From Candidatus Omnitrophota bacterium (lineage in GTDB: Bacteria; Omnitrophota; Gorgyraeia; Tantalellales; Tantalellaceae): 37,104 nt of DNA. The stretch lies in NCBI GenBank assembly GCA_043822245.1, contig JBDRBY010000030.1, positions 1 through 37,104 on the forward strand, written 5' to 3'. The notes beneath the pieces are model-generated. The model worked only from the letters and a program-made list of their open reading frames with translations, had not been told where the DNA came from and searched no databases. Position 1 is the stretch's first letter; each line of letters starts with the position of its first letter. This document shows, in pieces, positions 7,961 through 26,429 of the stretch. Position numbers and translations under genes: made by a program.

Positions 7961-7972
7961 CTTTTTCGCGAG

Positions 7973-9399: not shown

Positions 9400-9810
9400 T
9401 TAAAATCTGGCTATCACATAATCCACAAAACCCATCCCCACATAGATTAAATTATACAGATGATGCATGATAATCGCAATCATAGTCGAACCTGAAAATA
9501 TTACCGCAATGTTCCCTATAATTTTAGCTTCCACAAACACTGAATCAAACGGTATCCGCGCGAAGAGAGGATTTGTCCAACTGATCAGATTCAATATTAT
9601 CGTGTGTATGTGTATTGTGAGGTAATAAAACAGTTTTGGTTCTTTGGTAAGAATAAAAAAATGCGGCCATAAGAATTTCAGGACATTCGAGCCTAGATGG
9701 AAAGGATCATTAAACAAAAAAACACCGATAATCCCCGTCAAGACCAAAACATCCAAGATGGCCAAGCGTACATCACTTGATGTTTCCTTGGAACAATAGG
9801 CAAGCTCCAT
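9400..9810 (-). CDS. Hypothetical small integral membrane protein (~4 TM)
   Basis: Hydrophobic ORF. The track ORF 9400-9996 extends through two REP copies, whose translation gives DAINRVST and DAINLVST, so the real start is probably the internal Met at ~9810 or a non-ATG codon below 9899. Confidence 0.4.
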   Translation of the reverse strand: MELAYCSKETSSDVRLAILDVLVLTGIIGVFLFNDPFHLGSNVLKFLWPHFFILTKEPKLFYYLTIHIHTIILNLISWTNPLFARIPFDSVFVEAKIIGNIAVIFSGSTMIAIIMHHLYNLIYVGMGFVDYVIARF

Positions 9811-9898
9811 ATTGATATAATACCACGTTATGATGAAAAGAGGAAATATTTCCGGAAAGTGCCCATAATATGTTACACTATCGGAGGTGGTTATGTTT

Positions 9899-9974
9899 GT
9901 GGAGACAAGATTTATCGCGTCTTTACATTTCAGAATCATATCCGGCGTAGAGACGCGATTTATCGCGTCTTTAC
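9899..9974. repeat. REP-like pair at 9899-9926 (degenerate) and 9948-9974, plus a partial copy at 10062-10070
   Basis: GTGGAGACAAGATTTATCGCGTCTTTAC and GTAGAGACGCGATTTATCGCGTCTTTAC. Confidence 0.85.
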
Positions 9975-10097
9975 GTTTCGGGCGAGGGAAGGACAATCGC
10001 GGGAAGTTATCGGCAAAGGCATGCCTTTGCCCTCCGTTGCATCGCGTTATTTTTCCATCATGTAGAGACGTACTTGCGTAATGCTGATGAAGATTTT

Positions 10098-11069: not shown

Positions 11070-11369
11070 TTATTTTATTTTGGCTTCCAAATTCTCTAAT
11101 CTTTTTTTTAATTTTTTATTCTCATTTTCAATTTCTTTATCTTTTGCCTTTGAAGATAAATAGCTATCCTGTTGCCACCAATTTATTCCCATTTCCATAG
11201 CTTTATCAACTGAAGCTATCAAAAGCCTTATCTTTATATTAAGAAGATCAATATCAGCAAGTCGAATCTTAATATCTCCGGCGATTACAATTCCTTTATC
11301 TAAAACCCGCTCTAAGATATCAGCAAGATTGGTAGCTTCAGTAGCATGCATCATTCTTTGTTGTGTCAT
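11070..11369 (-). CDS. gvpJ: GvpJ/GvpM-type gas vesicle protein (GvpA-family core plus a charged coiled-coil C-terminal extension)
   Basis: LADILERVLDKGIVIAGDIKIRLADIDLLNIKIRLLIASVDKA matches the GvpA/J/M hydrophobic core. Confidence 0.82.
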   Translation of the reverse strand: MTQQRMMHATEATNLADILERVLDKGIVIAGDIKIRLADIDLLNIKIRLLIASVDKAMEMGINWWQQDSYLSSKAKDKEIENENKKLKKRLENLEAKIK

Positions 11370-11386
11370 ATTTGCCTCTCCTTTTT

Positions 11387-11710
11387 TTACATTAAATTTC
11401 CTAAAGGGCCTAAATTTATGTTCAGGTCTTCATCTTTTACGTCAAAAATCTTTTTTAACTCATCCATCTTATCTTCCAACAACATCAATGTCTCCCCTAT
11501 TCTTTCTACTTCTCTATCGGTAAGAGATCCGCCGTCAACTCTTCTCATAGCCTGTTTTTCCAGAAGCCTTCTTATCAACTCTACAAGCGTAAGAACCAAT
11601 TTTCCTAATCCTTTTTCTACATCTTTAGGATCAAGATTGATCCTCCCGGGATTAGAATTTTCTATTTCCGACGGATCTTTAGCAATTATCGCTATGGATG
11701 ATTTACTCAT
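11387..11710 (-). CDS. gvpK: Gas vesicle protein GvpK
   Basis: GLGKLVLTLVELIRRLLEKQAMRRVDGGSLTDREVERIGETLMLLE matches the conserved GvpK core. Confidence 0.85.
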   Translation of the reverse strand: MSKSSIAIIAKDPSEIENSNPGRINLDPKDVEKGLGKLVLTLVELIRRLLEKQAMRRVDGGSLTDREVERIGETLMLLEDKMDELKKIFDVKDEDLNINLGPLGNLM

Positions 11711-11711
11711 T

Positions 11712-11930
11712 TTAAGTCGATTCCCTCATCGGGCCCTCAAGCGGAGCGCCTCTTGAATTCTCCATAGTTTCTACCGAACTAAGCATAATCCTTAATCCTA
11801 TGTATATGAGGTCCACGTCGGCAACAGAAATAACTATGTCACCGGACGCGACCATCCCCTTCTCTAAAACCCTATCTAAAATCTCTAACAGGGTTACATC
11901 TTTGGTTTTCGCGTGAATGTCCGTTGTCAT
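11712..11930 (-). CDS. Second GvpA-family small gas vesicle protein (GvpA2/S/M-like)
   Basis: LLEILDRVLEKGMVASGDIVISVADVDLIYIGLRIMLSSVET. It lies 1 nt from gvpK. Confidence 0.8.
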   Translation of the reverse strand: MTTDIHAKTKDVTLLEILDRVLEKGMVASGDIVISVADVDLIYIGLRIMLSSVETMENSRGAPLEGPMREST

Positions 11931-11937
11931 CTCAGGT

Positions 11938-12771
11938 TTAAGACCTTTCGTCGCCTGGTTTTATAAATCCATCACAAAAATTATACGCCGGCCAAGGGCC
12001 TGTCCAATCAAATTCTAAACCTTTAGGAACATACCTTGATTTTAGATATGCTATGGTATTGTCAAATTCTTTTATTCTTTTCTTATTTATCAAAAATGCC
12101 GCGTTTAAAATCATTTTTTCTTGTTTTTGAGTTATTTCCGCCGGTAACAGTTTGTTAAGCTTCGCGTTCTGGGATAGTTTTTCTAATCTGTTAAAACTAT
12201 CCTGAGTAAATTCAGAAATTTTTTTATCTAAAACATTCTTTACAATGTCTTCTCTCTTCTTTCTTAAAAAAAACGCCCTCCCTTTGCCGCTAGACGCGAT
12301 CTCATCGTCAATCTTTTTAATGTCCTCATTTTCTACGGGAAGGGTGTCACTGATTCTTTTGGGATCGCAATATATCTTTAGCCCCCACTCTTCCTTACCG
12401 TTTAATTCTTCTATCGTCCTTCTAAATTCCGTACCGCGCGCCTTAAGCAATTGCAGTACGTTTTCTTCAGTATTGAAAATCGTGCCAAATTTAAAAGGCA
12501 AAACCGTTGTCTCTTGTACAATTCTTTCTATCACATTCTCATGCCGCCTAACCTTTTCCTCAAGCCAATTCATATCGTCTAAACCTTTTTTAAAATTTTC
12601 CTCATCGAATTCGTTTGAGGAAACCTCGCTAATAACCGCGCAAATACCCTGAAAATAAATTAAAGCCAATTTAACGCCTATATCTTTGAAATCATTACAA
12701 ACCGGCTTTGATTTCGTAATACAGTATAAATAAGTCAGTTCTTTTTCTTCGCTCATCGCGCACCCCGCCAT
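11938..12771 (-). CDS. GvpF/GvpL-family gas vesicle assembly protein (paralog 1)
   Basis: The N-terminus (YLYCITKSK...) and the overall length and pattern are typical of GvpF/L, including FKFGTIF, VLQLL and a KEEWGLKIY motif. Confidence 0.82.
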   Translation of the reverse strand: MAGCAMSEEKELTYLYCITKSKPVCNDFKDIGVKLALIYFQGICAVISEVSSNEFDEENFKKGLDDMNWLEEKVRRHENVIERIVQETTVLPFKFGTIFNTEENVLQLLKARGTEFRRTIEELNGKEEWGLKIYCDPKRISDTLPVENEDIKKIDDEIASSGKGRAFFLRKKREDIVKNVLDKKISEFTQDSFNRLEKLSQNAKLNKLLPAEITQKQEKMILNAAFLINKKRIKEFDNTIAYLKSRYVPKGLEFDWTGPWPAYNFCDGFIKPGDERS

Positions 12772-12789
12772 CTGTTAAGGCTTATTCAG

Positions 12790-13041
12790 TTACGCCTGGC
12801 CTTTACGCTCATACGACTCAACTTCTAAACTATTATTCAGTTTAACAACATAAATATTTCTGTCCTGCACTCTTGTGGAAAGGCCTAAGGATTTGATAAA
12901 CGAGCTTTCCTCATATACTTCCGCCTCAGTTTCCCAGCCGTTACCGCTCACAGCCGCCTTGATCACTTTTACATCTTTAACACTAAGAGTCTTTTTTAAA
13001 AATTCCGCCGATGCCTTTCGGGCATTTTCAATGTCCGCCAT
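12790..13041 (-). CDS. Hypothetical small protein (83 aa) embedded in the gvp operon
   Basis: Clean ORF whose stop overlaps the gvpG start by 1 nt. No recognised family. Confidence 0.55.
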   Translation of the reverse strand: MADIENARKASAEFLKKTLSVKDVKVIKAAVSGNGWETEAEVYEESSFIKSLGLSTRVQDRNIYVVKLNNSLEVESYERKGQA

Positions 13042-13280
13042 TATTCTCCCCCCTCTTTACTCTCTCTGATAGAATCTAACCGCGCTAAAAGTTCTTGCTC
13101 TTGTTTTTTATATTCCGCTTCGGCTATTTCATCCATCTCAAAACGCATCTGTAATTCCATAAGTTTCTCTTTTATCCGGCCTTCGTCAGAAAATTCCTTT
13201 TCCACAAGATCGTTAATCTTTTTACCTATCCAAGTCACACCGTTTATAGGCATAAACAATAGGTCATCAATCAAGAACAT
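13041..13280 (-). CDS. gvpG: Gas vesicle protein GvpG
   Basis: The N-terminus MFLIDDLLFMP and the charged helical tail (EAEYKKQEQELLARLDSIRE) match GvpG. Confidence 0.8.
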   Translation of the reverse strand: MFLIDDLLFMPINGVTWIGKKINDLVEKEFSDEGRIKEKLMELQMRFEMDEIAEAEYKKQEQELLARLDSIRESKEGGE

Positions 13281-13281
13281 A

Positions 13282-14046
13282 TTAGTATTCCTTTGTCTCT
13301 ATCGTTATACTCACAAAATTGAACGGAGGAAGCGTACCTACATACTTAAACTTTATCTTGTCTCCATATTTTTCGTCAAGCTGTTGGATATTCCGATCAA
13401 ATTCCGCCTCTTTGTTTTTGACTACCAAAAAAGCGGCATTTATGATCATCCTTTCACCATAGGTATCATTTATCTTTACATTCTCCGCTAAAGGGCTTAG
13501 GGCATCCAACATTGCTTTTTTATATTTTTCCTTTTCCTCATTCAGAGCCTGTTCCACCAAATTTCCAATCTCCATACGTTGGTAATAACTCTTTGCCGGC
13601 GGCACAGACACTATTTCCTGCTTAAGCTTTTTAATCTTCTCATATCTTTCCAATATTTCTTTGTAAATCATGTCTTCTCTAAATATCGCCTTAAGCCCTA
13701 GCTCCTTTTTATCTCTAACCTTATTAAAAAGTTCTTTAAGTTTATCGTATTCCCTTGCTAATATCTTCCTGATCTTTTCCTCATCTTCAGCAATTGTGGC
13801 AAATCTTACAGGCAAAACTGTACGCGTTTTCATTACTTCCTCAATCGCCTTTTCATGGGCAAACGCATTTTCACTCGAAATAGCGTATTTTTTAATCGGG
13901 GAATTACTGACCACAGCCGCAATATCGTTAAAACATACCGTATAAAGAACATCTCCCCTGCCTCCGATGCCTAAAGGGCCAAAAGATTGAACCTGATTCG
14001 AATCAATTATGCAGTAAATATATTTGCCCTCGTTCATTTTTCCCAT
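13282..14046 (-). CDS. GvpF/GvpL-family protein (paralog 2)
   Basis: KYIYCIIDS...FGPLGIGGRGDVLYTV...AAVVSNSP...LPVRFATI. Confidence 0.85.
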   Translation of the reverse strand: MGKMNEGKYIYCIIDSNQVQSFGPLGIGGRGDVLYTVCFNDIAAVVSNSPIKKYAISSENAFAHEKAIEEVMKTRTVLPVRFATIAEDEEKIRKILAREYDKLKELFNKVRDKKELGLKAIFREDMIYKEILERYEKIKKLKQEIVSVPPAKSYYQRMEIGNLVEQALNEEKEKYKKAMLDALSPLAENVKINDTYGERMIINAAFLVVKNKEAEFDRNIQQLDEKYGDKIKFKYVGTLPPFNFVSITIETKEY

Positions 14047-14813
14047 TCCTCGGGGTATATAGCAAGATTAACAAAATTGAATACCGGTAAGGGGCCCGCG
14101 TATAGAAATTTTACTTTCTCTTTACGGCGTTCGCTTAAATCATCCATTATGTTATCAAACTCTTTTTCCCTGGCTTTAGAAATCAAAAAAGACGCGTTCA
14201 TAAACATCTCTTCACTCATATTATTGTTAAGCCTGTAATCCACCGCTAATCTCTTTAAGATGTTTATGATTTCTTCCGCAGATTCTTCTTTTTTCTTACC
14301 AAGTGCCTGCTCAACCATCCTGCCCAATTCCACTCCATCTTGGATATCTTTCTTGCCCTTATGATTTTGTATGTTTTCTTTCGCATCCTTAATCATTTTG
14401 TTTTCGCGCGCAATTTCCTTAAAAATCGCGTACATATTCTTCCATATCGCTTTGACGCCTACTTCTACCTTGTGATCCATATCTTTCAGCGCGTTTTTAA
14501 ATTCCCGGCCCCTTCTATCTAAAAGATTCCTTATTTCATCGGCATTTGAAGCAAGCGTGCCAAACCTAACCGGAAGCACACTATCAAATTCCTTCATCAC
14601 TTCCTCAATTACTTTCTGATGAGCCAGCATATTCTCCCGATTTACAACAAATCTACCCATAGGATGATTACTGACAACCATACTCAAATCGTCGTGCCCA
14701 ACAGTTAAAACCTCATCGTTTCTGCCTCCGATGCCGATAGGCCCAAAATTTCGCTCTTGTTTTGTCCCGATAACGCAATAGATATATTTTCCTTCTTTCT
14801 CCAGAATACTCAT
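14034..14813 (-). CDS. GvpF/GvpL-family protein (paralog 3)
   Basis: KYIYCVIGT...FGPIGIGGRNDEVLTV...LSMVVSNHP...LPVRFGTL. It overlaps the downstream paralog by 13 nt. Confidence 0.85.
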   Translation of the reverse strand: MSILEKEGKYIYCVIGTKQERNFGPIGIGGRNDEVLTVGHDDLSMVVSNHPMGRFVVNRENMLAHQKVIEEVMKEFDSVLPVRFGTLASNADEIRNLLDRRGREFKNALKDMDHKVEVGVKAIWKNMYAIFKEIARENKMIKDAKENIQNHKGKKDIQDGVELGRMVEQALGKKKEESAEEIINILKRLAVDYRLNNNMSEEMFMNASFLISKAREKEFDNIMDDLSERRKEKVKFLYAGPLPVFNFVNLAIYPEEWEK

Positions 14814-14815
14814 AC

Positions 14816-15874
14816 TTAATCCTTTATTTTGACCAGTACCGCGTTTTTATTAAAATCTTTCTCATCAAAGAAACATCTGTCAATATGCCCTTCCTGCATG
14901 CATGCTCTGTAATATTCGATAAGTATCTTATGCGCCTTAGTTATCTCGTCAAATTCTCCCTCTTTACTTTGTATCCCGGAATTTTTGTCCGGATGCGCGG
15001 AAAGCGACAAAGCATGATGCGCTTTTTTAATTTCTTCTTCGGTTGTAACATCGTTCAGCCCGAATCTTTTTTGAGCCCAGATTACTTGTTCAAAATTTAT
15101 CTTCTTTATCTCCAGAGTGTAAAAACTATACGGCGGAAGAGGGCCTATACATCTGAATTTTAGTTTTTCATTAAATTCAGCATTTAAGCCCTCTACCTCA
15201 TTATCAAAATCCTTCCGTTTTGTTTTGTCTACCAAAAAGGCGCAATTCATAACCATTTTATCATCCATGCGTTCTCCGGCCCTAAAATCCTCGCTTAGTC
15301 CGCTTAAACAAGCTACAAGACGAGAACTGTGCCCCTCCCTTCGCTCATCTAACGCTTTCTTAACCATAACTCCTATTTTCATCTGATCTTCCACGGTCAC
15401 GCCTCCGGGATTGGATAAGGCTATTTGCTTGTATCTACTGATTTCTTCCCGCTTTCCGATCTCATTGAGAACCGCCGTAAAATCACTCCATGTAACGGCG
15501 ACATCAATCTCTATCTTCCCTGCCGCTTTTTTAAACACATCCTTTATGAGGGGATATCCCTTCCGTAAGACATCTTCAACATGGCTGTCCTCTTGAGCAA
15601 ATGTACCAAGCCGCATAGGAATAACCGTATGCTCCAAAGCCATTATCCGCTCAAGCACTTTCTGATGCCTGACCAACAGCCTGGCTAGAGCGTCTCTGTG
15701 CAGACAAGCACATTCAACAACCGGCAAGTCACATACTACGGCAGAAATATCCCGATAAGGAATTGTATAAACTAAATCAGTCCCCGTTTTTTCTACTGAC
15801 TCCATAGGAACAAAAAGGCGCATCCCCGCGTTAGAGCCTACTACGCCATAAATATATCTGCCTATTTCACTCAC
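14816..15874 (-). CDS. GvpF/GvpL-family protein fused to a C-terminal DnaJ-type J-domain (paralog 4)
   Basis: The N-terminal ~250 aa is GvpF/L-like (RYIYGVVGS..., IPMRLGTF). The C-terminal ~70 aa is FGLNDVTTEEEIKKAHHALSLSAHPDKNSG...ITKAHKILIEYY, which has the HPD motif and the J-domain helix II/III pattern. It apparently starts at a GTG. Confidence 0.8.
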   Translation of the reverse strand: MSEIGRYIYGVVGSNAGMRLFVPMESVEKTGTDLVYTIPYRDISAVVCDLPVVECACLHRDALARLLVRHQKVLERIMALEHTVIPMRLGTFAQEDSHVEDVLRKGYPLIKDVFKKAAGKIEIDVAVTWSDFTAVLNEIGKREEISRYKQIALSNPGGVTVEDQMKIGVMVKKALDERREGHSSRLVACLSGLSEDFRAGERMDDKMVMNCAFLVDKTKRKDFDNEVEGLNAEFNEKLKFRCIGPLPPYSFYTLEIKKINFEQVIWAQKRFGLNDVTTEEEIKKAHHALSLSAHPDKNSGIQSKEGEFDEITKAHKILIEYYRACMQEGHIDRCFFDEKDFNKNAVLVKIKD

Positions 15875-15956
15875 CCTTTACGCCTTCTTTCTTTTTAGAC
15901 TTGCGTTTGAATTTACTGCTCAAGAATCCTTTGATCATTTTTAAAATTTTAAACAT
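15867..15956 (-). CDS. Candidate 29-aa Lys-rich micro-ORF ([29 protein letters not shown]) bridging the CDC48-like and GvpF/L-J genes
   Basis: I translated it by hand. Its ATG overlaps the CDC48-like TAA stop by 8 nt, and its TGA overlaps the GTG start of the downstream gene. A GGAGG lies 5 nt upstream of the ATG. It is too short for the ORF track. Confidence 0.3.
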
Positions 15957-18102
15957 CTCCGCCTCCTTTCTGATTATTGAGTAAGTTAATCGCATCTTTA
16001 AAATGTCTCATGGCTATCTCTAGTCGCGGCTTCCCTCTGCTTGGTAATGACCGGCCGTTTATATATTCTCTTATTGCAAGCATAGCGGCCTTGCGGCAAA
16101 TAAATTCAATATCAGACCCTACTTTTTTATCCGTCTCTTTAGCGAGGCTCTTAAAATCAACATCCTCGGTAAGTGGTTTATTCCTAGTATGTATTTTGAA
16201 AATCTCTTCTCTGGTTTCCTCACTCGGCACGGACAGTTCGAATAAAAGGTCAAATCTTCCGCTTCTGAGCAAGGCCGGGTCAATTAAATCTATCCTATTG
16301 GTAGCGGCTAAGACCACCACTCCTCTAAGCTCTTCAATACCATCCATCTCTGTTAAAAACTGGCTTATCACCCTTTCCGTGACATGCGTACCGGTAGAAT
16401 CCGAACCGCGCCTGGGCACAAGGCTGTCTATCTCATCAAGAAAAAGTATTGTTGGCGCCGCTTGCTTCGCCTTTTTAAATATCTCCCTTACGCCCCGCTC
16501 CGATTCGCCGACATAACGATTCAAAAGCTCAGGGCCTTTAACAGAGATAAAGTTTACTCCGCTTTCCGAGGCAACCGCTTTGCCCAAGAGTGTTTTCCCC
16601 GTTCCCGGCTTACCATAAAGCAAGATTCCTTTAGGCGGCGAGGTGTTCGCTTTTTTGAAAACATCAGAATATTTAAGGGGCCACTCTATTATCTCTTTAA
16701 GTTCTTCCTTGACATCCTTAAGGCCCCCCACGTCACCCCATTTTACATTCGGCACTTCAACAAAAACTTCTCTAATAGCCGAGGGTTCTACCTCTTTCAT
16801 GGCTGCTAAAAAATCATCCATGGTTACTTCCAATTCCATCAAAGTCTCATAGGGGATATCAGCCATTTCAAAATCGATTTTAGGCAAAATCTTCCGCAGA
16901 GCCGCCATTGCCGCTTCTCTTGCTAATGCCTCCAAATCCGCTCCCACAAATCCATGAGTTATTTCCGATAACTTTTCTAAACCAACATCTTTTGCTAACG
17001 GCATACCTCTGGTATGAATTTGAAGCACCTCGTATCTCGCGTTTTTATCAGGGATAGGAATGGATATTTCTCTATCAAATCTCCCCGGCCGTCTTAGAGC
17101 CGGGTCTATAACATTTGGCAGATTGGTCGCGGCGATAACAATAACGTGGCCTCTGGATTCCAATCCATCCATTAACGCTAAAAGTTGAGAAACTACTCTA
17201 CGCTCAACCTGTTTTTCAGCGCCCATGTCTTCTCTTTTCGGAGCGATTGCCTCAATTTCATCTAAAAAGACGATGCTCGGAGCGTTGGCCTGGGCGTTTT
17301 GGAATATTGAACGTAAACGGCCTTCACTTTCTCCATAAAATTTTCCCATAATCTCCGGGCCGCTTATGCTGATAAAACACGCGTCAGTCTCATTCGCTAC
17401 TGCTCGGGCAATTAACGTTTTTCCCGTACCCGGGGGGCCATAGAGGAGTACCCCTTTGGGCGCGCCAATACCCAATCTCTCAAACACCTGAGGATATCTT
17501 AAAGGAAGCTCTATCATCTCTCTAATCCTTTGAATCTGCGTAGTGAGCCCGCCAATATCTTCATATGAAATCTTAGCCGGGCCCGCTTCCTTAACTTCCT
17601 CTACCTCAATTTTTATGAGGGTAGCCGGGCTTATTGAAACTATACCGCCGGGAACAGTATCCAATACCTTAAAATCACAAGATTTTGAACCAAAAAGCGC
17701 GGCTCTAACTCTGTCGCCACAAGTTACCGGCAGTCCTTCTATGAGAGAACCTATGTATTTACTGTCTTTGTCCTTCTGAAGAGAACCTGATAAAGTTAGC
17801 GGTGAAAGCCTGATTTTGTCCGCGGGTTTACAAACAACTTTCTTGATTTTTATCTTTTCATCTAATCCAACCCGCGCGTTTTCGCGTAAGATTCCGTCAA
17901 TCTGCGCGATCTTTTTTCCCCTTTCTTCGGCATAGCAGAGCATTACCTTAGCCGGAGTCTCTCTTTTTCCTTTAATCACCGCGATATCACCCGCTTCTAA
18001 TCCAAGGCTCTTCATATCTTCCGGATCGAGCCTGGCAACCGCCCTGCCTACATCCTTTGATAATGCCTCTTTTACTTTTAGTGTTAACGAATTGGCCGTC
18101 AT
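15949..18102 (-). CDS. CDC48/VCP-like double-ring AAA+ ATPase
   Basis: 717 aa. It has a CDC48 N-domain-like N-terminus and two AAA modules with Walker A motifs GPPGTGKTL and GKPGTGKTL, Walker B motifs FLDEID, and SRH regions ([22 protein letters not shown] and [19 protein letters not shown]). Confidence 0.9.
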
Positions 18103-18638
18103 TTCTGTACTCTAATTTCTAATATCCCGTTCCTATAATTTGATGTTAGGGTTTTGGCTTGAACTTTAGCCGGCAATAAGACTTCTTTGCGGTATTTTCT
18201 ATCCTTACTCACTGCTTTTATTTCCAATATATCCTCTTTTAAATCCAAGGAGATAGCTTCCTGTTTAACTCCCGGCATCTCCGCCATAACAACCACTTCA
18301 TCTTTCTCATTAAATATGTCAACAATCGGCTCTCTTTCTTCTTCAACCTTTGGCCCTTTAGGGGTTTTTTTAACATTACCAAAGGGTTCAACCACAGTCT
18401 TACCTCCCATGGCTGTTTTTACCGAAAACCCAAAAACCCCTTTCATGCCCTCTTTGAGACGGCCCAGGTCTATTTCTCCTTCTTTTTTAACTTCTCCTCC
18501 GGCCTCTTTTAAATCCCCTGCCAAATCAACTAATTTCTCAATACCACGGAATAATCCGCCTAAGCTTAATTTCCCTATACCAAAATCAAGATCTAAATCC
18601 TGTTTTTCGTTTTTGGTTTTTCTTTTGCCCTTGTTCAT
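18099..18638 (-). CDS. Hsp20/alpha-crystallin family protein with an N-terminal Lys/Gly-rich extension
   Basis: The C-terminal alpha-crystallin domain is [38 protein letters not shown]...[25 protein letters not shown]. It overlaps the CDC48-like start by 4 nt. Confidence 0.8.
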
Positions 18639-18694
18639 TTTCTTCCCCCCATTTCGCCTACATTTTTAGATTTTTCGAACATGAACCGTTTTTA

Positions 18695-18721
18695 TAGAGA
18701 CGCGATAAATCGCGTCTCTAC
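18695..18721. repeat. REP-like palindrome
   Basis: TAGAGACGCGATAAATCGCGTCTCTAC. Confidence 0.9.
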
Positions 18722-18737
18722 TGTACAAAACACAGCC

Positions 18738-18958
18738 CGCGAAATACCGCGCGACGTAAAAAACGTAATTCGCGAAACACCGCGCACCGTAAAAAACGTA
18801 ATCCGCGAAACACCGCGCACCGTAAAAAATGCAATCCGCGAAACACCGCGCACCGTAAAAAATGCAATCCGCGAAACACCGCACACCGTAAAAAATGCAA
18901 TCCGCGAAATACCGCGCGACGTAAAAAACGTTGCCAGCGAAATGTCGCATACCGTAAA
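18738..18958. repeat. 33-bp tandem repeat array (6 full units plus 1 degenerate unit) bracketed by REP hairpins
   Basis: The units start at 18738, 18771, 18804, 18837, 18870 and 18903. The consensus is CGCGAAACACCGCGCACCGTAAAAAATGCAATC. The outer units are the variant CGCGAAATACCGCGCGACGTAAAAAACGT..., giving an A-B-B-B-B-A arrangement. All six reading frames are open across the array, so the listed ORFs (18666-18950, 18681-18968 and others) are artefacts. Confidence 0.9.
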
Positions 18959-19027
18959 GACGCGATAAATCGCGTCGCTACCTTATATAATATGGCGCAC
19001 CGTAGAGACGCGATTTATCGCGTCTCC
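18956..19027. repeat. REP-like pair at 18956-18981 (degenerate) and 19002-19027
   Basis: AAAGACGCGATAAATCGCGTCGCTAC and GTAGAGACGCGATTTATCGCGTCTCC. Confidence 0.85.
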
Positions 19028-19037
19028 TTTAACCGAA

Positions 19038-19343
19038 CTAATAGCTTAGAGAGAACGTCTTAAGAGGTTTTGTGGTTAATTTTACAGAGGGTTTAACCTT
19101 TTTCTCTTGCGATGTTTCTTCTTGAGAATTTTCAATTCGTTTAAGAATTTCATCTAGTTGTTTTTCCGCCCTATCTTTCCTCTTACTTAAGCCAAACACC
19201 TCTTTTTCCAATCTATCCTTTTCTCTTCTGAGAATGTACAGCTCCAAATAACCCGATCTTTGGATTTTTGGGATAGAACCCGTGCCTATGCTATGAATAC
19301 TCTTTATATCACTAGTCCCTGCGATTTGTAACATCCCTTTCAT
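19038..19343 (-). CDS. Hypothetical charged/coiled-coil protein (101 aa), downstream of and co-oriented with gvpN
   Basis: Clean ORF 15 nt after the gvpN stop. No recognised family. It has a GvpG-like charged helical character but a different N-terminus. Confidence 0.55.
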   Translation of the reverse strand: MKGMLQIAGTSDIKSIHSIGTGSIPKIQRSGYLELYILRREKDRLEKEVFGLSKRKDRAEKQLDEILKRIENSQEETSQEKKVKPSVKLTTKPLKTFSLSY

Positions 19344-19358: not shown

Positions 19359-20330
19359 TTATACGAAAACTTCATCAACTTTTAGTGTCTCTTCCTCTGT
19401 AACCTCTCTGATAGCGCATACTTCGACCAACCCTTGAACTATATCTTTTACCTTGGATTGATTCGTCTTTGACCCGACCCTGCTTGTCTCAGACGCTAGT
19501 ATATCCTGGCATATTTGCGCGAAGGCCTTGTTCGATTTCCCCGGAGATATGTTCAGCACTTTAAGAGTTTTAGCGATCATAATACATCCGCGGACTGTCG
19601 GCGCGAATTCACATTTTCCGGATTCTCTCAATCCTCTCACAATATTCACTATCGTTTCCGCGTATCTTTTGGAAAGCTTAGATTTTGCCCGGGTTATAGC
19701 CACCTCCGTCTCATAATCAAAACAATCTAAATCCATTGTTATCATCCTGTCCCTCAAAGCGTCCTGGCTTCTGTGGACTCCGGCATATTCCTCCGGGTTA
19801 GAGGTAAAAATAGCGGTAAAATTAGGGTCAACCCTCAAATATGGTTCTTCACCGCCCCGCCCCACCGGCAAATCCATCATCTTTTCCTGTAAAATGGAAA
19901 GAAGGATATTGTTTGCCTCAGGCCGTGAACGGGTAAATTCGTCATAAATCAAAGTGAACCCGTATCTGCAAGCAACTGTTAAACGATTATCTACCCAGCG
20001 TTTTACCATATCTTCTTCTGTTTTTAACACCCTGGAGATAAACCTATCCACTACTTTTCTAACCCTGTAACCATATTCACCACCGACTAAATCCGATGTA
20101 GTAAATTCTTCATCTCCATGAATCATCACAACGGGCCTCGCTATTTTGCCGGCAATGTGCATAGCCATAGTAGTTTTGCCTGTACCGGAAACTCCCCGAA
20201 AATGAATGGGAAAACCCGCTTTAATGTAGGAAAGGGCTCTTCTGGTAACATCTTTGACGTATTTCGTCTCCACAAAGTCAGGTAAAGCGCTGGGTTCCAG
20301 CACTGTTGTCATTTCATCTATCATTTTCAC
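19359..20330 (-). CDS. gvpN: GvpN AAA+ ATPase (CbbQ/NirQ/GvpN family)
   Basis: 323 aa. It has the Walker A motif GVSGTGKTT, a Walker B motif LIYDEF and a MoxR/CbbQ-like arrangement. It follows the A-C-N gene order seen in other gvp clusters. It starts at GTG 20330, or at ATG 20324. Confidence 0.88.
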   Translation of the reverse strand: MKMIDEMTTVLEPSALPDFVETKYVKDVTRRALSYIKAGFPIHFRGVSGTGKTTMAMHIAGKIARPVVMIHGDEEFTTSDLVGGEYGYRVRKVVDRFISRVLKTEEDMVKRWVDNRLTVACRYGFTLIYDEFTRSRPEANNILLSILQEKMMDLPVGRGGEEPYLRVDPNFTAIFTSNPEEYAGVHRSQDALRDRMITMDLDCFDYETEVAITRAKSKLSKRYAETIVNIVRGLRESGKCEFAPTVRGCIMIAKTLKVLNISPGKSNKAFAQICQDILASETSRVGSKTNQSKVKDIVQGLVEVCAIREVTEEETLKVDEVFV

Positions 20331-20462
20331 TCACCTCCTATTTTTCCCCATCGAGGAAATAACCCCTTTGCCGCCGCAAACCTGGCAATTCGCGAGTTTA
20401 GAAAGAAAATCAAAAGGATCTTTGCCTTTACCATGGCAAAATGCGCGCCCTATCTTTTTCAT
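20331..20462 (-). CDS. Candidate 43-aa zinc-ribbon micro-protein (MKKIGRAFCHGKGKDPFDFLSKLANCQVCGGKGVISSMGKNRR)
   Basis: I translated it by hand. It has a CxH...CxxC motif. Its TGA stop directly abuts the gvpN GTG start. It starts 24 nt downstream of the GvpC-like gene. It is too short for the ORF track. Confidence 0.45.
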   Translation of the reverse strand: MKKIGRAFCHGKGKDPFDFLSKLANCQVCGGKGVISSMGKNRR

Positions 20463-20486: not shown

Positions 20487-21176
20487 TTATTTCTTCTTTT
20501 TTTTGTTTTTTTTCGCGCTTTTTCTGGATTTTGTGCTTTTCTCCGGCAAACCTTCTTCAAGAACATCTCTACTTTTTCTGGATTTTGACAAAAGGAAACT
20601 CACACTCTGCCATGCCTCTTTTGCTCCAGACACATCTCTCTTGTATTCACTCATAACCTTTCGCGTACTACTCACTATACTCTTTACTTCTTTCGCGAGC
20701 TTAGACCTTAATTGTTTTTCCATTTTATCCCGATCGTCACGAAATGTTTCTAAAAGCGTTTCTACTTTCTTTTTCAGTTCCCCAGCAAACGTTTTCAATT
20801 CTTTGGAAAACTTCGCGAAACTTTCCGCCTGTTCCTTGCTCATCTCTTTACGGTTTTTTCGAAACACCTTAAGCATCGCGGCCACGTCTTCAGACAAAGC
20901 CTGGAAAAAATCATCTAACACTTTCGCCTGTTCCTTCCCCATTTTTGTTCGATTCTTGCTGAACGTCCCAATCATATCTCCCACGCTCTCTGACAAATTT
21001 TTGGCAAAATTAGCCAAATTTCGAGCCTGCTCTGAACCCATTTTTTTCCTGTCCGAAGCAAATTCCTTTAAGGTGTCATGAGTATCTGACATTATCCCCC
21101 CCAGTTCTTTTACCCGTACGTCACGCGAAGCAATAACATTTTCCGCAATTTTTTTCATTTCATCCGCCATTCCCAT
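20487..21176 (-). CDS. GvpC-like repeat protein (about four ~33-aa amphipathic repeats and a poly-Lys tail)
   Basis: The repeats are DTLKEFASDRKKMGSEQARNLANFAKNLSESVGDMIG, TFSKNRTKMGKEQAKVLDDFFQALSEDVAAMLK, VFRKNRKEMSKEQAESFAKFSKELKTFAGELKK and KVETLLETFRDDRDKMEKQLRSKLAKEVKSIVSS. The start was reassigned to the ATG at 21176, which is preceded by AAAGGAGG (MGMADEM...). It sits between gvpA and gvpN, as gvpC does in cyanobacteria. Confidence 0.72.
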   Translation of the reverse strand: MGMADEMKKIAENVIASRDVRVKELGGIMSDTHDTLKEFASDRKKMGSEQARNLANFAKNLSESVGDMIGTFSKNRTKMGKEQAKVLDDFFQALSEDVAAMLKVFRKNRKEMSKEQAESFAKFSKELKTFAGELKKKVETLLETFRDDRDKMEKQLRSKLAKEVKSIVSSTRKVMSEYKRDVSGAKEAWQSVSFLLSKSRKSRDVLEEGLPEKSTKSRKSAKKNKKKKK

Positions 21177-21284
21177 TTTTCCTCCTTTTGTAAGTTTTGG
21201 TATTGTCAAAAGTTTATACCCAAATTTTTCTTAATCCTTCGCATTTAAAACAGTTATCTAAGATTAACTTCTCTCCCCCCTTAA

Positions 21285-21440
21285 AATTCCCCCTTTGGAA
21301 AAGGGGGTTAGGGGGATTTTGTCATTTCTCTCCACAATTGACACGCATTTGATCTCAGATTCATTTCGCGGTTCAACATCTTGTATCAAATCCCCCTGGC
21401 CCCCTTTTTCAAAGGGGGGAAAGATCTGCCCTTTTTCAAA
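21285..21440. mobile_element. MITE-like element: ~35-bp terminal inverted repeats (CCCCCTTTGRAAAAGGGGGYYAGGGGGATTT) flanking a ~70-bp core
   Basis: Left arm 21290-21325, right arm 21395-21430 (reverse complement). Each arm itself contains an 8-bp-stem hairpin CCCCCTTT-NNN-AAAGGGGG. A solo arm recurs at 26445-26480. Confidence 0.5.
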
Positions 21441-21532
21441 AAATAGAAGGGAAACTACTTCATTATTTCTTTCATAATTCTTTCATTTTAATTTTGACAT
21501 TATCTAAGTTTTTACTTTTCCCATATCCAAAG

Positions 21533-22141
21533 TTACAAAGTATTTCTACTAAACTTCCTCCACTCTTTTTTTATTTTAAACTCTTCCAGCATGGATTTGA
21601 GGTCTTTTACTCTGAGCTCTCTTCCTTTGGCTAAAAGATTCTTAAGCCTCTTCGACATTACCTGCTGTTCTTCTCTAAATTGCTTTAGTTTAACGGTAAC
21701 TTCTTCTTTCCGCACGTCTTGCTGAGAAAGAATCCGTTCAATTAAAACCTGAAAGTCTTTAATTCTTTTAGTTTCTCCCTTACTAAGGTCATCTTTTACT
21801 GAAGTCAAATTACGAGCTAACATATGCGCCATTTCTTTTTGTTCCGTTATGTACCCATTCAACAAACTTTTTGCTTCTTTTTCTTTTTCCTTTTGAGCCC
21901 AAACAATCTCTTTCATCATATTGTCAAAATCTTTTTTCCGAAGAGAACTGATCTTCGCAAGGCTTTCTCTCAATTCCATAGTAACTATTTCTCTTTCTTG
22001 TCTCGCATCGAGAAAGGAATCCTGAAAACTCCAGAGAAACTGCTCTCCTGTATCAGCGGCCGCCTCTATTCTGTCCATCTTAGCGACATAAGAACTAACA
22101 ACGTTCTCAACAATACCATGTATACCCTCTCTTGAAAGCAT
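21533..22141 (-). CDS. Coiled-coil protein, a paralog of the GvpC-like repeat protein
   Basis: Its C-terminal segments KDFQVLIERIL...KQFREEQQVMSKRLKNLLAKGRELRVKDLKSMLEEFK share the F-R-x-x-R/Q-x-x-M-S-K motif and periodicity of the 20487-21176 protein. Confidence 0.6.
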   Translation of the reverse strand: MLSREGIHGIVENVVSSYVAKMDRIEAAADTGEQFLWSFQDSFLDARQEREIVTMELRESLAKISSLRKKDFDNMMKEIVWAQKEKEKEAKSLLNGYITEQKEMAHMLARNLTSVKDDLSKGETKRIKDFQVLIERILSQQDVRKEEVTVKLKQFREEQQVMSKRLKNLLAKGRELRVKDLKSMLEEFKIKKEWRKFSRNTL

Positions 22142-22271: not shown

Positions 22272-22478
22272 TTACGCGGCTGACGCTGTTAACCCAATAG
22301 CTTCCGCATACTTCAGATAAGTCTCAACTGATGCCACCACAACTCTAGCTTCGATAGCGAGTATTTCAATACCCACCAAAGAAACTCTTACCCAAGCATC
22401 AACCACAACACCCTTATCCAGGATACGGTCGACAACTTCAACCAGACTCGACGAACCGATTGCCTTTTCTACAGCCAT
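22272..22478 (-). CDS. gvpA: Major gas vesicle structural protein GvpA
   Basis: [63 protein letters not shown] is near-identical to the canonical GvpA core. The ATG at 22478 is preceded by GGGAGGAGGTGAGAAAA. The track's extra MRK comes from an upstream GTG. Confidence 0.95.
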
Positions 22479-22518
22479 TTTTCTCACCTCCTCCCATTTT
22501 AGAAATTAAAGGTCAAAA

Positions 22519-23090: not shown

Positions 23091-23213
23091 TTGAGACGCG
23101 ATAAATCGCGTCTCTACATTTCAGAATCATATCCGGTGTAGAGACGCGATTTATCGCGTCTTTACATCTCAGAATCATATCCGGTGTAGAGACGCGATAA
23201 ATCGCGTCTTTAC
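23091..23213. repeat. REP-like triplet in alternating orientation with a 47-bp period (23091-23117, 23138-23165, 23185-23213)
   Basis: Each copy is followed by the conserved ATTTCAGAATCATATCCGGT spacer. The last copy overlaps the stop of the 23210-23854 CDS. Confidence 0.9.
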
Positions 23214-23854
23214 ATTTCAGCTCCGTCTACCGTTTTCATGTTTTCCGGTGTAGAGGAGGGTTCGCTGGGGTTTTCTTCCGGGAGAGGTTTGTCTGAGATT
23301 AGGTTGCTATTTACGAGATCGGATTCTTTGGGGTCTCCGTAGAGGCCTAACAATTGGAAGATATTTTTGTTAACAATGTAAACTTCTTTTGAGCCGGGTT
23401 TTCTTAAGAATGAACTTCCATATCCAGGGGTTTTCGTGCCCGCCAGAAATGTTTCTTTGACATTACCGTCTTTGTCTAACGCTTCTATGATAACCGCTTC
23501 TTCGTCAGAAATGCCGTAATCCGCTAGGAGTTCCGCATCACTTGAGCGCAGTTCCCCTTTCAAGCCGGCTATTTCTTTTATAAAGTTTTCTATTTTTTCC
23601 GCGTCAGCCTGTTTGTTTTCGTGAGAAGAAACTTGCCACTGGCCTTGCTCGTCTTTTTTTAATTCCAAAGAATCCTCTTTTTCTCCTGTCTTACGTACCT
23701 CTATGATGTGAACATCCGAGGGGTTAATTTGAATTTGAAGGCTTTTGTATTCCGTTTCAAAAATCTCCGGTTTAAAAAATGTTTTCTTCGCGATTGTTAC
23801 GGCCAAAAGAACGGCGAATATGATTCCTAAAATTAAGATATGTTTAAACTTCAT
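23210..23854 (-). CDS. Membrane-anchored protein with an N-terminal TM helix, possibly DUF4340-like and GldG-associated
   Basis: MKFKHILILGIIFAVLLAVTIA is a signal anchor. The gene lies downstream of the GldG-like gene in the same orientation. The start was moved to the internal Met because the upstream residues are REP-derived. The family call is weak. Confidence 0.5.
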   Translation of the reverse strand: MKFKHILILGIIFAVLLAVTIAKKTFFKPEIFETEYKSLQIQINPSDVHIIEVRKTGEKEDSLELKKDEQGQWQVSSHENKQADAEKIENFIKEIAGLKGELRSSDAELLADYGISDEEAVIIEALDKDGNVKETFLAGTKTPGYGSSFLRKPGSKEVYIVNKNIFQLLGLYGDPKESDLVNSNLISDKPLPEENPSEPSSTPENMKTVDGAEM

Positions 23855-23889
23855 GTTGCTCCTCCTGCACATGGAGACATTTCATCCGT

Positions 23890-23967
23890 GTGGAGACGCG
23901 ATAAATCGCGTCTCTACATTTTTCGCGGGTCATTTCTTCATAGAGACGCGATAAATCGCGTCTCTAC
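23890..23967. repeat. REP-like pair at 23890-23917 and 23941-23967
   Basis: TGGAGACGCGATAAATCGCGTCTCTAC and TAGAGACGCGATAAATCGCGTCTCTAC. Confidence 0.9.
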
Positions 23968-26429
23968 TGGACTTTCCATTTCGCGCGGCGGCGCATGAAG
24001 ATTCTTATTCCGCCGATAATACACAAGATTATTGGCACGAAGAAAGTTGTGAACATCCGCCATCCGGCTCTAACCGCCGAAGAAAACTTCCTTAAAGACC
24101 GGTCTACGGGCTGTTTGCTTCTTACCTCGATAAGCTTTTCACCAAGAGTAAGAGCGTCAATGGAATTTAGGAAAAAAGCCGCGTGCCCTCCATTGCCTAT
24201 AAGTTCTTTTGTAAACATTCTTGAACACCCTATGAGTATGAGTTTGCCCGGGTTGGGAGTGGTTTCGGACAAGGCATGCCTTGTCCCTACGAGTTGGTCC
24301 TCTTTTTTCGGCCAGTCAGGTATTTCTTTGTCTTTAAAGGCGTCAGGAAACTGGCCTTTAACCAATACGGCTAGAGGATACTCTTTGAGCACCGAAGATG
24401 CCGGGCTGGTTATATCTTCCCGCGTAAGCGCGCCCCCGTGATATGGGATTTCCCACGCGTACCGGCTGGAAGTAAAAAGAAGTTTTTTCTCTAAATCCAG
24501 TTTATTAAGCCTTTCAGAATCTATCGTAAGCGCGCTACCCCACAGGTATAATAAACTCGAAAGCCGGGATGTTATGGAAATGTTTTTGTTCATTTGCTCT
24601 TCAATAATTTTTAACTGCATAGGAAATTTCACGGGAGAAGAAACCGGCATAACACCGGGAAACGCTCCGCCCGTTATTGATATCATATCGCTTTGCCTAT
24701 CCATCAAAAGATCATCGCTGATGCCAAGAGCCCATTCGTTAATAAGGCTGTTTATTTGCGGCCCTTTATCTCTTGCCTTAACACTCATCCCTCTTGTTGA
24801 GGCCTCGTAGCCATATTCGTATTTCTGAACAGCCAGGAACACAGAACCGCCGTTTACTAAAAATTTGTTTATTTCAAACCTTTGGCGCTCATTGAGATTT
24901 TCGGGTTCCAGGACGATAAGAGTGGACACCAGGTATTGCCCCGTTTCCGCGTCTTTCGGAATAGGTTCTTCTTCCGTAAGCCTTACGCGAAAAGTTTTAT
25001 ACCCCTCGTATTCAAGAAGTTTCTCAACAAAGTCATACGCGTCTTCTCTGTACTGTTCCGCGGCGTTCTGGCCGAACATAGCCAAAACCTGCCGCATTTT
25101 TGGATCGATTTGGCGTTCAAAATAAGGAGCAACCACGGCCACGGACGGGCTTTTATCGAGAGAAAGCCGGTATATCTTCGCGAGAAGGCTGTATTCTAGC
25201 CCCGGTAAATCCTGTAGCGTAATAGCGGGAATAACTTCTTCCGGCTTTTCTTTGTAGGCTACGGATATTGCCGCGTAAATCAACTTTACTCCAACCTCAT
25301 CAGCTTCTATGCTCCTTACCTGAAAAGGCCTGATACCCTTTTTTTTGATAGATTCTTCCAAATCTTTTTGGTTTTCCTCAGCCACGTTAGCGGCTTCCAT
25401 ATGAAACACCTTATACCCAAATTTACCGTTTGACGCTACTTTAAATTCATCGAGCTTATCCCTTACTTCGCGCTCAAGAGTTTTCATCTCTGTGGGCATC
25501 TTATCCTGCGGAGAAATGAACAGTTTTACCGTTACGGGCGACTTAAGTTCACCCAGGATCTCGTGTGTCGCTTTGGAAATCGTGTAAATCTTGCCGCTAG
25601 TCCAGTCAAACCGGCCCACGGGCATATCGGAAAAAATAAAATTGGTAAGGCTAAAAATTCCCACGCTTATGAGGCAAGCTGTAATAAACGTGGTTTTTGA
25701 TTTTGGCCGCATTCGGCCGTCAAGCCAGAACCTGTTAAGTCCCAGAAAAATCACCGTGCCCATTACAAAATAAAGCGCGTCGCGAGTATCAATAATTCCT
25801 TTTTGAAAGGTGTCAAAGTGCTGAATCATGCCGACGGAACTTCTAAAAAAAGAACCCGCCCCGGGTATCCATCCATCTATAGACCCGGCGGTAAAATCCA
25901 TCCCTAAAAGAAAAACCGCGAAACATGCTACCATTGCCAAAATAAACGACACTATCTGATCTTTACAAAATCCTGAAATAAGGATTCCAAGCGCGAGAAA
26001 AAAACTTCCCATAAGGATACTTCCGATATACTGGCAGATAATGGAACCTATGTCAGGATTCCCCAAAACGGCAATCATTATAGGAATAGTCAGCGTGGAA
26101 AAAAGAGCGATTATGTAAAATGCCAGGCTGGCGAAAAATTTCCCAAGGACAAGCTCATGTGTTTTCACCGGGAATGTAAGCAAAAGTTCCAGCGTATTGC
26201 CTTTCCTGTCTTCTGACCACAGGCGCATTGTGACTGCCGGAAGAAAAATACACAGGATAATCGGAAGCATGTAAAAGAACCCTCTCATATCCGCTGATGA
26301 CATGAGAAAAAACTGTGTCATAAAAAGCCCTGCTGACATCAAGAGAAAGACAACGATGAAGATATACGCTATGGCTGAATTAAAATACGCCTTTATTTCT
26401 CTATTAAGTATGGTGGTAGTGTTGTTCAT
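23964..26429 (-). CDS. ABC-2 type permease fused to a GldG-like auxiliary domain (ABC_transp_aux) with a C-terminal TM anchor
   Basis: 821 aa. The first ~260 aa form 6 TM helices typical of ABC-2 permeases. The central part (KIYTISKATHEILGELKSPVTVKLFISPQD...) resembles GldG-family components. There is a hydrophobic helix near the C-terminus. Confidence 0.78.
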   Translation of the reverse strand: MNNTTTILNREIKAYFNSAIAYIFIVVFLLMSAGLFMTQFFLMSSADMRGFFYMLPIILCIFLPAVTMRLWSEDRKGNTLELLLTFPVKTHELVLGKFFASLAFYIIALFSTLTIPIMIAVLGNPDIGSIICQYIGSILMGSFFLALGILISGFCKDQIVSFILAMVACFAVFLLGMDFTAGSIDGWIPGAGSFFRSSVGMIQHFDTFQKGIIDTRDALYFVMGTVIFLGLNRFWLDGRMRPKSKTTFITACLISVGIFSLTNFIFSDMPVGRFDWTSGKIYTISKATHEILGELKSPVTVKLFISPQDKMPTEMKTLEREVRDKLDEFKVASNGKFGYKVFHMEAANVAEENQKDLEESIKKKGIRPFQVRSIEADEVGVKLIYAAISVAYKEKPEEVIPAITLQDLPGLEYSLLAKIYRLSLDKSPSVAVVAPYFERQIDPKMRQVLAMFGQNAAEQYREDAYDFVEKLLEYEGYKTFRVRLTEEEPIPKDAETGQYLVSTLIVLEPENLNERQRFEINKFLVNGGSVFLAVQKYEYGYEASTRGMSVKARDKGPQINSLINEWALGISDDLLMDRQSDMISITGGAFPGVMPVSSPVKFPMQLKIIEEQMNKNISITSRLSSLLYLWGSALTIDSERLNKLDLEKKLLFTSSRYAWEIPYHGGALTREDITSPASSVLKEYPLAVLVKGQFPDAFKDKEIPDWPKKEDQLVGTRHALSETTPNPGKLILIGCSRMFTKELIGNGGHAAFFLNSIDALTLGEKLIEVRSKQPVDRSLRKFSSAVRAGWRMFTTFFVPIILCIIGGIRIFMRRRAKWKVQ

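Follow-up and report, generated by a model that had tools for sequence, protein, structure and literature searches.

A putative divergent GvpC and a related paralog with 58-residue units between gvpA and gvpN in gas-vesicle clusters of uncultured bacteria

Gas vesicles are strapped on their outside by the protein GvpC. Here, we analysed two adjacent genes, referred to as X and Y, in a 37,104-bp contig of a Candidatus Omnitrophota metagenome-assembled genome (MAG); this whole stretch of DNA is referred to as the window. Both open reading frames (ORFs) were confirmed on the minus strand at the positions in Table 1, as originally predicted. They lie in a minus-strand gas-vesicle cluster that spans the window from ~22.5 kb down to 11 kb, and the ORF list together with a Pfam scan gives the order gvpA, X, Y, gvpN, i.e. 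both genes are in the gvpC position, as had been proposed; in the Nostoc and Halobacterium reference gene orders, gvpC lies between gvpA and gvpN. Judged from its sequence, Y is a divergent member of the GvpC family and not an analog of it. In total, we consider it likely that Y is the GvpC of this organism and that X is a related shell-coating paralog, with higher confidence for Y than for X. The basis for this reading is homology, the repeats, a conserved binding face and GvpA site, amphipathic helicity, and linkage to gvpA and gvpN; from these, we infer binding, stoichiometry and the division of labour between X and Y.

As references, we used the annotated GvpC proteins from plasmid records of Nostoc sphaeroides (WP_118171794.1) and Halobacterium salinarum (pNRC100). 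As positive controls, Nostoc GvpC matched Pfam Gas_vesicle_C (PF01304) with 160 bits and TIGR02641 with 133 bits, and H. salinarum GvpC matched Halo_GVPC (PF05465) with 245 bits. In BLASTP, Y matched Nostoc GvpC with E=1e-14 and 55.5 bits, at 27% identity over 135 amino acids (aa). In this alignment, Y residue 7 pairs with GvpC residue 1 and the first 120 aligned positions are gap-free; thus, the N-termini and the repeats of the two proteins are in register. The Smith-Waterman score was 151, compared to 52 for reversed Y and 40.8±7.2 for shuffled sequences (z 15), and a hidden Markov model (HMM) of the Y family scored 62 bits against Nostoc GvpC. Moreover, 49 of 150 Y-family cluster representatives matched Nostoc GvpC, mostly with representative residue 7-10 aligned to GvpC residue 1. 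Canonical GvpCs ranked below the 150 Y-profile matches listed and, therefore, the bridge between Y and GvpC was built by direct comparison; the ten lower-ranked Y-profile matches that were examined had no PF01304 domain. Representative P0139 passed TIGR02641 (19.6 against a cutoff of 18.8), and P0142 failed (15.6). The original prediction held that the two proteins do not resemble known GvpC and suggested an analogous family. For Y, this does not hold; Y looked unlike known GvpC because the short curated models of 33 positions, PF01304 and TIGR02641, miss it.

Autocorrelation of Y with BLOSUM62 peaked at lag 33, with z 5.9 for the full-length protein and z 6.6 for residues 1-195, while the largest z among the 1000 shuffles used as null was 4.3-4.7. 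Lags 66, 40 and 73 were also raised, consistent with repeat lengths of 33, 33, 40 and 33 residues; the four repeats begin FASDRKKMGSEQAR..., FSKNRTKMGKEQAK..., FRKNRKEMSKEQAE... and FRDDRDKMEKQLRS..., respectively. The original observation of about four imperfect repeats of 33 residues thus holds, the third repeat being 40 residues long. Y is also strongly amphipathic, with a z of 4.8 for the mean helical hydrophobic moment and a spectral peak at 100 degrees, and has a net charge of +20; both its amphipathic character with the 33-residue period of cyanobacterial GvpC and its poly-Lys tail had been noted originally. Among 55 Y-family proteins, lag 33 was the top lag in 27, lags 11 and 22 were raised too, and basic tails are common in the family. 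The AlphaFold2 (AF2) model of Y is helical throughout, residues 208-229 being non-helical and the stretch 195-229 having a predicted local distance difference test score (pLDDT) below 50. A low-confidence all-helix model of this kind is typical of helices that require a partner surface. The confidence of the model is too low for a fold search.

Some Y-type homologs (P0001, P0006, P0012 and the ORF at 7855-8739 of locus L005) have a conserved C-terminal extension of ~45 aa with the consensus ...HPEGVKV.DMEEPLGV.R.RLG.IAK.LL.EG.VRKEENLYFPL and no Pfam match. This extension may be a small winged-helix-like module and recalls the extra C-terminal domain of haloarchaeal GvpC; Y of the window does not have it.

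In GvpC, nine positions of the 33-residue repeat, i.e. L4, F11, L12, T15, R19, A23, Q26, L30 and F33, are more than 90% conserved (Huber et al. 2023, PMC9994262). All nine are on one helical face, and the substitutions R19A, F11A/F33A and L4A/L12A/L30A each abolished vesicle stabilisation (PMC9994262). One repeat covers four GvpA subunits, which are spaced at 12.1-12.7 Å, and touches residues 51-61 of GvpA helix alpha2 with Glu52 and Glu59 (PMC9994262). In repeat 1 of Y, R43, Q50, L54, F57 and L61 are equivalent to GvpC R19, Q26, L30, F33 and L4, and all five are invariant in a 16-sequence alignment of the Y family. We also counted the binding-face residues of repeat 1 across 59 Y-type proteins, which come from independent genomes. 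Arg was present at the R19 equivalent in 45, Ala, Ser or Gly at A23 in 54, Gln at Q26 in 47, Leu at L30 in 52, Phe at F33 in 41 and Leu at L4 in 45 of the 59 proteins; the F11 equivalent was Met or Leu in 47 and the L12 equivalent Leu or Ile in 48. Repeat 2 of Y is similar to repeat 1 at the binding face; at the positions equivalent to those of GvpC, both carry R, Q, L, F and L, with M/L at position 11 and I/L at position 12. Repeats 3-4 are partly degenerate. The main systematic difference of the Y-type repeats from GvpC is a Phe replacing Thr15.

The predicted partner site is conserved as well. GvpA of the window is 82% identical to GvpA of N. sphaeroides, and 10 of the 11 residues of the alpha2 stretch (residues 51-61) are identical, including E52 and E59. 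Cryo-electron tomography places GvpC along the ribs, above the C-terminus of GvpA, which carries negative charge (PMC10185304); by analogy, the basic Y would fit this location. By homology with cyanobacterial GvpC, Y would lie on the vesicle exterior along the GvpA ribs, with each 33-residue repeat spanning about four GvpA subunits and docking on helix alpha2 via the conserved Arg, Gln, Leu and Phe face. Possible contacts of the Lys-rich tail are the acidic C-terminus of GvpA or neighbouring molecules, and with this coat the wall would be thicker and the collapse pressure higher, as is the case in Anabaena.

Compared with cyanobacterial GvpC (Anabaena/Dolichospermum flos-aquae and N. sphaeroides; PF01304, TIGR02641), Y has in common the slot between gvpA and gvpN, an architecture of an N-terminal segment, 4-5 repeats of 33 residues and a short C-terminus, the Arg/Gln/Leu/Phe face and a predicted amphipathic helix. 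Y differs in its identity of 27%, the 40-residue repeat, the Lys-rich tail and the Phe instead of Thr at repeat position 15. Moreover, and unlike cyanobacterial GvpC, Y is always accompanied by X as a second paralog with 58-residue units; no such paralog is known from cyanobacteria.

The pairwise similarity between X and Y is marginal (BLASTP E=0.009 over 45 aa). In hhalign, the 16-sequence Y alignment and a 35-sequence X alignment matched with a probability of 98.7% and E=2.2e-16 over 193 columns. The parts common to both proteins are an N-terminal M-x-x-I-x-E-N-I-x-S-Y motif, the repeat cores and a C-terminal Trp motif. Profile comparison thus supports the predicted paralogy: X and Y are true paralogs, if distant ones. 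X has the same sequence as MFH1798265.1, which is annotated as 'hypothetical protein' ABH844_02815, and belongs to a family with more than 330 members, of which the names in the source records are arbitrary; the exact Y sequence was absent from the protein collection searched. X is better conserved than Y, with ~120 X homologs at 50% identity or more and 45% for the best Y homolog. Scans of X gave no Pfam or NCBIfam family, including no match to PF01304 or TIGR02641.

A period of 33 residues was not supported for X: in autocorrelation, X of the window had no significant signal at lag 33 (z 2.7). The dominant period of the X family is 58, which was the top lag in 51 of 63 proteins with a mean z of 5.8. 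X consists of an N-terminal segment followed by units of 58, 58 and 33 residues and a short C-terminus, and the invariant pairs R68/R126, F72/F130, Y97/F155, L108/L166 and L112/L170 are each 58 residues apart. The predicted FR..R..MSK..L motif is present in X as FREEQQVMSKRLKNLL, and the GExxR(L/V)KDF insert of the X type is also found in some Y-type proteins. AF2, using 120 sequences, modelled X as four long helices (4-62, 69-120, 125-175 and 178-201) with a pLDDT of 73 and a predicted template modelling score (pTM) of 0.60. A Foldseek search of the PDB with this model gave nothing below E=0.49 and generic long-helix proteins only, and the X profile had no match among PDB sequences. In total, these comparisons indicate that X represents an unnamed variant subfamily of the GvpC superfamily with a different unit length.

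Scanning one genome per species, we identified 65 loci, all in MAGs or single-cell genomes. According to the submitter labels, they come from about 15-20 phyla, including Nitrospirota, Planctomycetota, Thermodesulfobacteriota, Omnitrophota, Elusimicrobiota, Actinomycetota, Ignavibacteria/Bacteroidota, Latescibacterota, Nitrospinota, Sumerlaeota, Spirochaetota, Victivallales and several candidate phyla. All ORFs were classified locally by HMM, and the following counts are from the 44 loci in which the interval from gvpA to gvpN is complete. X is the gene directly after gvpA in 44 of 44 loci and is itself followed by at least one further paralog in 43 of 44. The architecture of the window, A-X-Y-N, was present in 16 loci, A-X-Y-p113-N in 12 and A-X-Y-Y-p113-N in six; other architectures accounted for the remaining 10. 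The superfamily also includes a short 113-aa protein that many relatives have before gvpN and that the window lacks. Metagenome contigs had the identical gene order. X has a fixed place beside gvpA, and clusters of this type are known from uncultured bacteria only.

When the Y alignment was used as a profile in an exhaustive search, 1227 cluster representatives, unsorted by subfamily, matched at E<=1e-3, and 518 did so at E<=1e-10. On a plasmid of the cultured alphaproteobacterium Methylocella tundrae (L075, 3791-4534), a 'hypothetical protein' between gvpA and gvpN (WP_134492831.1) matched the Y HMM with 44 bits; thus, cultured bacteria, too, have unannotated GvpC-type proteins. In Octadecabacter (L074) and Spartinivicinus (L076), the proteins found in this slot did not match the Y HMM. 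In the literature, we found nothing specific on the X/Y family or on gvpC in Omnitrophota, Nitrospirota or Deltaproteobacteria clusters.

Several observations weigh against the interpretation of Y and X as shell-bound proteins of the GvpC type. Y of the window gives no match to PF01304 or TIGR02641 even at E<=10, it is basic (pI 9.9) while Nostoc GvpC is acidic (pI 5.8), and its AF2 model is of low confidence (pLDDT 44). Amphipathic repeats can inflate scores, and the Y profile matches ApoA-IV in the PDB with E 1.8e-9. X has no direct significant similarity to GvpC (HMM 2 bits, hhalign probability 1.6%, Smith-Waterman z 0.5), and its link to GvpC is transitive only, via Y. In the profile alignment, X retains the GvpC Arg, Leu and Phe equivalents as R50, L61 and F72, with insertions between them; because these insertions break the helical phase, and because AF2 folds X into a bundle and not a rod, X may not bind as GvpC does. 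Finally, the reading comes from sequences and models.

X most likely coats or organises the GvpA shell. Two of its repeats would have grown to 58 residues, i.e. 33 residues plus a GExxRxKDF insert of ~25 residues, and X would be the more constrained of the two proteins, would be co-transcribed right after gvpA and may open from a helical bundle onto the surface. The main rival explanation is that Y is the shell-bound GvpC, while X is no permanent part of the shell and serves as a soluble assembly factor in the form of a helical bundle; X would keep GvpA or Y from aggregating, or act as a template or nucleus for the growth of ribs, and would then be released. The packing of X into four helices next to an unpacked Y (pTM 0.23), the higher conservation of X, its lack of direct similarity to GvpC and the many chaperone-like genes in the cluster all speak for an assembly factor. 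They have to be set against the N-terminal segment and the R/L/F repeat core that X has in common with Y, the classic gvpC slot of X after the highly expressed gvpA in 44 of 44 genomes, and the tendency of AF2 to bundle surface-binding amphipathic helices. Altogether, we regard an X of this kind as unlikely.

The coexistence of two paralogs had been proposed to tune vesicle width and strength. Length variants of gvpC are known from Planktothrix. In Microcystis, the number of gvpC repeats tracks vesicle width and, inversely, strength (review PMC9501494), which is a precedent for the idea of tuning. The Microcystis and Planktothrix forms are alleles or copies of a single gene with varying numbers of repeats, whereas X and Y are deeply diverged paralogs that differ in unit length and are both fixed throughout the genomes. 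By analogy, tuning by the two paralogs is a reasonable speculation. It is doubtful that they build a two-component outer skeleton, in which X and Y would occupy separate layers or registers and a heteromeric lattice would set mechanics or width. If X were helical and extended, a 58-residue unit would measure 58 x 1.5 Å = 87 Å and cover ~7 GvpA subunits compared to four per 33-residue repeat, which so far is numerology.

Haloarchaeal GvpC (H. salinarum pNRC100, PF05465) resembles X and Y in the gvpA-gvpC-gvpN slot and in having helical repeats (32-40 aa), and an extra C-terminal module is present in some of its members as in some Y homologs. It is very acidic and has no detectable similarity to X or Y: neither protein matched PF05465, HMM scores were at most 6 bits, the hhalign probability was 0.4% and the Smith-Waterman z was 3.2. 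Matches of X and Y to Pfam and NCBIfam families of the coiled-coil type (ApoLp-III, ZorA, xenorhabdolysin and others) were sub-threshold and were rejected as noise from composition and periodicity. Neither protein matched the phasin family PhaP_Bmeg (PF09602), and YtxH/GvpP (PF12732) gave weak matches in 9 of 16 Y members (best E 0.009).

The likeness to exchangeable apolipoproteins (ApoA-I/A-IV/E, apoLp-III) deserves closer consideration. Like X and Y, these proteins have tandem amphipathic helices with an 11-residue sub-period, and they form bundles able to open onto a hydrophobic surface. X and Y could be generic apolipoprotein- or phasin-like coats for lipid or polyhydroxyalkanoate, with a GvpC likeness that reflects convergent 11-mer periodicity. 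Sub-threshold matches to apolipoprotein A1/A4/E in 16 of 16 Y-family members (best E 3.1e-08, PF01442), the match of the Y profile to ApoA-I in addition to ApoA-IV in the PDB, and the raised lags 11 and 22 in the Y family are in line with such coats. The scores of Y itself are far under the Pfam cutoffs (PF01442, 17.1 bits with a cutoff of 90; PF07464, 22.1 bits with a cutoff of 36.3), and as a single sequence Y matches ApoA-IV with 22 bits in fragments, as opposed to one colinear alignment of 135 aa with GvpC, which includes the non-repeat N-terminus. Moreover, the bona fide Nostoc GvpC also matches ApoA-I weakly (E 0.005), and apolipoprotein homology of Y was rejected on this ground; the likeness arises because amphipathic helices have the 11-residue sub-period in common. 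Finally, the target of apolipoproteins is lipid and that of X and Y would be a protein lattice, and the X and Y genes were never seen apart from gvpA and gvpN. A confident apolipoprotein or phasin match lacking gvp association had been named as evidence against the original prediction; the likeness found is sub-threshold and the gvp association universal, and we consider generic coats very improbable.

It is equally far-fetched that one or both proteins are regulators or nucleic-acid binders acting via the poly-Lys tail or an extra C-terminal domain, as the net charge of +11 of the Y tail, the conserved extension in several Y homologs and the C-terminal zinc-finger-like domain of haloarchaeal GvpC (a ROS_MUCR hit) might suggest, given that neither X nor Y matches a DNA-binding family, that Y of the window lacks the extension, that the conserved core is the GvpC repeat region and that the location of GvpC on the ribs, as described above, would account for a basic protein just as well.

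Table 1. Gas-vesicle genes, repeat units of X and Y, and spacer repeat in the window, in the order of the minus strand
Feature	Position	Strand	Evidence or remark
gvpA, major shell protein	22272-22478	-	Pfam Gas_vesicle 57 bits
X, putative GvpC-superfamily paralog, 202 aa	21533-22141	-	profile link to Y family, synteny
X unit 1, residues 40-97, 58 aa	21851-22024	-	lag 58, recurring invariant residues
X unit 2, residues 98-155, 58 aa, GE-x-x-R-I-K-D-F insert	21677-21850	-	58-residue periodicity
X unit 3, residues 156-188, 33 aa, REEQQVMSKRLKNLL...MLEEF	21578-21676	-	aligns with Y repeat 4 (BLASTP, hhalign)
31-nt inverted repeat, CCCCCTTTGGAAAAGGGGG...GGGGGATTT	arms 21289-21319, 21388-21418	.	90% complementary, 68 nt between arms
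Y, putative divergent GvpC homolog, 229 aa	20487-21176	-	Nostoc GvpC similarity, 33-residue period
Y N-terminal segment, residues 7-39	21060-21158	-	colinear with GvpC residues 1-33 and X N-terminus
Y repeat 1, residues 40-72, 33 aa	20961-21059	-	
Y repeat 2, residues 73-105, 33 aa	20862-20960	-	
Y repeat 3, residues 106-145, 40 aa = 33 + 7-residue insertion	20742-20861	-	lags 40 and 73
Y repeat 4, residues 146-178, 33 aa, degenerate	20643-20741	-	
Y basic C-terminal tail, residues 196-229, net +11	20490-20591	-	ends ...KSAKKNKKKKK
Zinc-finger ORF, 43 aa, CxxC...CxxCxGxG	20331-20462	-	between Y and gvpN, own Shine-Dalgarno sequence
gvpN (AAA+)	19359-20330	-	Pfam AAA_5 66 bits; closes gvpA-gvpC-gvpN module
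Conserved 101-aa coiled-coil protein	19038-19343	-	directly after gvpN
Hsp20/GvpH	18099-18638	-	
CDC48-type AAA+	15949-18102	-	
GvpF-DnaJ fusion	14816-15874	-	
Two more GvpF/L genes, GvpG, GvpO-like, GvpL/F, GvpA/J-like, GvpK, GvpJ-like	11070-14813	-	

GvpA has 68 aa when read from the ATG at 22478; the mechanical ORF start is a GTG at 22487. The Y start is the ATG at 21176, which lies 5 nt past an AAGGAGG Shine-Dalgarno sequence, and the homologs share the start MGIAE.... Homologs of the zinc-finger ORF, with 44 ORF hits in 32 related loci, are DnaJ-type zinc-finger proteins of ~110 aa at the corresponding position, compared to which the version in the window is much shorter. gvpN was found in all related loci with phmmer E values of about 1e-160 to 1e-182. 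The 101-aa protein after gvpN has ...SLSY as its last residues, recurs in almost all related loci (phmmer E values as low as 1e-35) and is without family assignment; small proteins after gvpN on the Methylocella and Spartinivicinus plasmids, which end in ...QLSY and ...IMRY, resemble it. This cluster type is rich in chaperone-like genes, i.e. Hsp20, the CDC48-like AAA+ protein, the GvpF-DnaJ fusion and the zinc-finger protein. In the window, the CDC48-type gene is immediately after Hsp20 (15949-18638), with no ArsA/ParA-like ATPase gene between the two; such a gene was present there in the four relatives read at this position (L001, L003, L004 and L006). Upstream of gvpA, two-component or sigma-54 activator genes and MEDS-domain histidine kinases were found in L001, L003 and L006, and genes for a DUF4340 protein and an ABC-2 transporter in the window. 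Upstream of gvpA in the window there was no convincing sigma-54 promoter, and a simple promoter/terminator scan performed at chance level.

The X-Y spacer (21177-21532) is unusually long with 356 bp, that of relatives being usually far shorter, and its inverted repeat is probably an inserted repeat element that is not part of the proteins. In relative L001, the spacer contains an ORF for a Cys-rich protein of 61 aa. Elsewhere in the window, tandem arrays of the perfect palindrome GAGACGCGATAAATCGCGTCTC with periods of 48-65 nt are present at 2457-2641, 3052-3220 and 23093-23236; these are not clustered regularly interspaced short palindromic repeats, because any one array has near-identical 'spacers'. 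Two ORFs, at 9400-9996 and 23745-24063, encode the same ...DAINRVST.../...VETRFIAS... peptides and, therefore, probably contain further copies of the palindrome element. Between the 101-aa gene and Hsp20, a 33-nt tandem repeat (18723-18958; 6.3 copies, 89% matches) gives rise to spurious repetitive ORFs at 18666-18950 on the minus strand and 18681-18968 on the plus strand. Finally, a 276-nt tandem repeat (2.7 copies, 75% matches) is located at the contig end (1-740).

GvpC is commonly said to be confined to some gas-vesicle clusters, mainly those of cyanobacteria and haloarchaea. Our comparisons suggest that an unannotated GvpC superfamily fills the gap between gvpA and gvpN in MAG clusters of roughly 15-20 labelled phyla. 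This is not a new kind of system; it is useful for annotation and for gas-vesicle engineering. With family models for Y, X and the 113-aa paralog, many proteins now called 'hypothetical protein' would be annotated correctly. GvpC is also the main handle for engineering acoustic reporter gas vesicles. The 58-residue unit of X together with several fixed paralogs would represent a natural experiment on how repeat length relates to the GvpA lattice, and divergent basic GvpC variants that would recognise a near-identical GvpA alpha2 could be tested directly on Anabaena vesicles.

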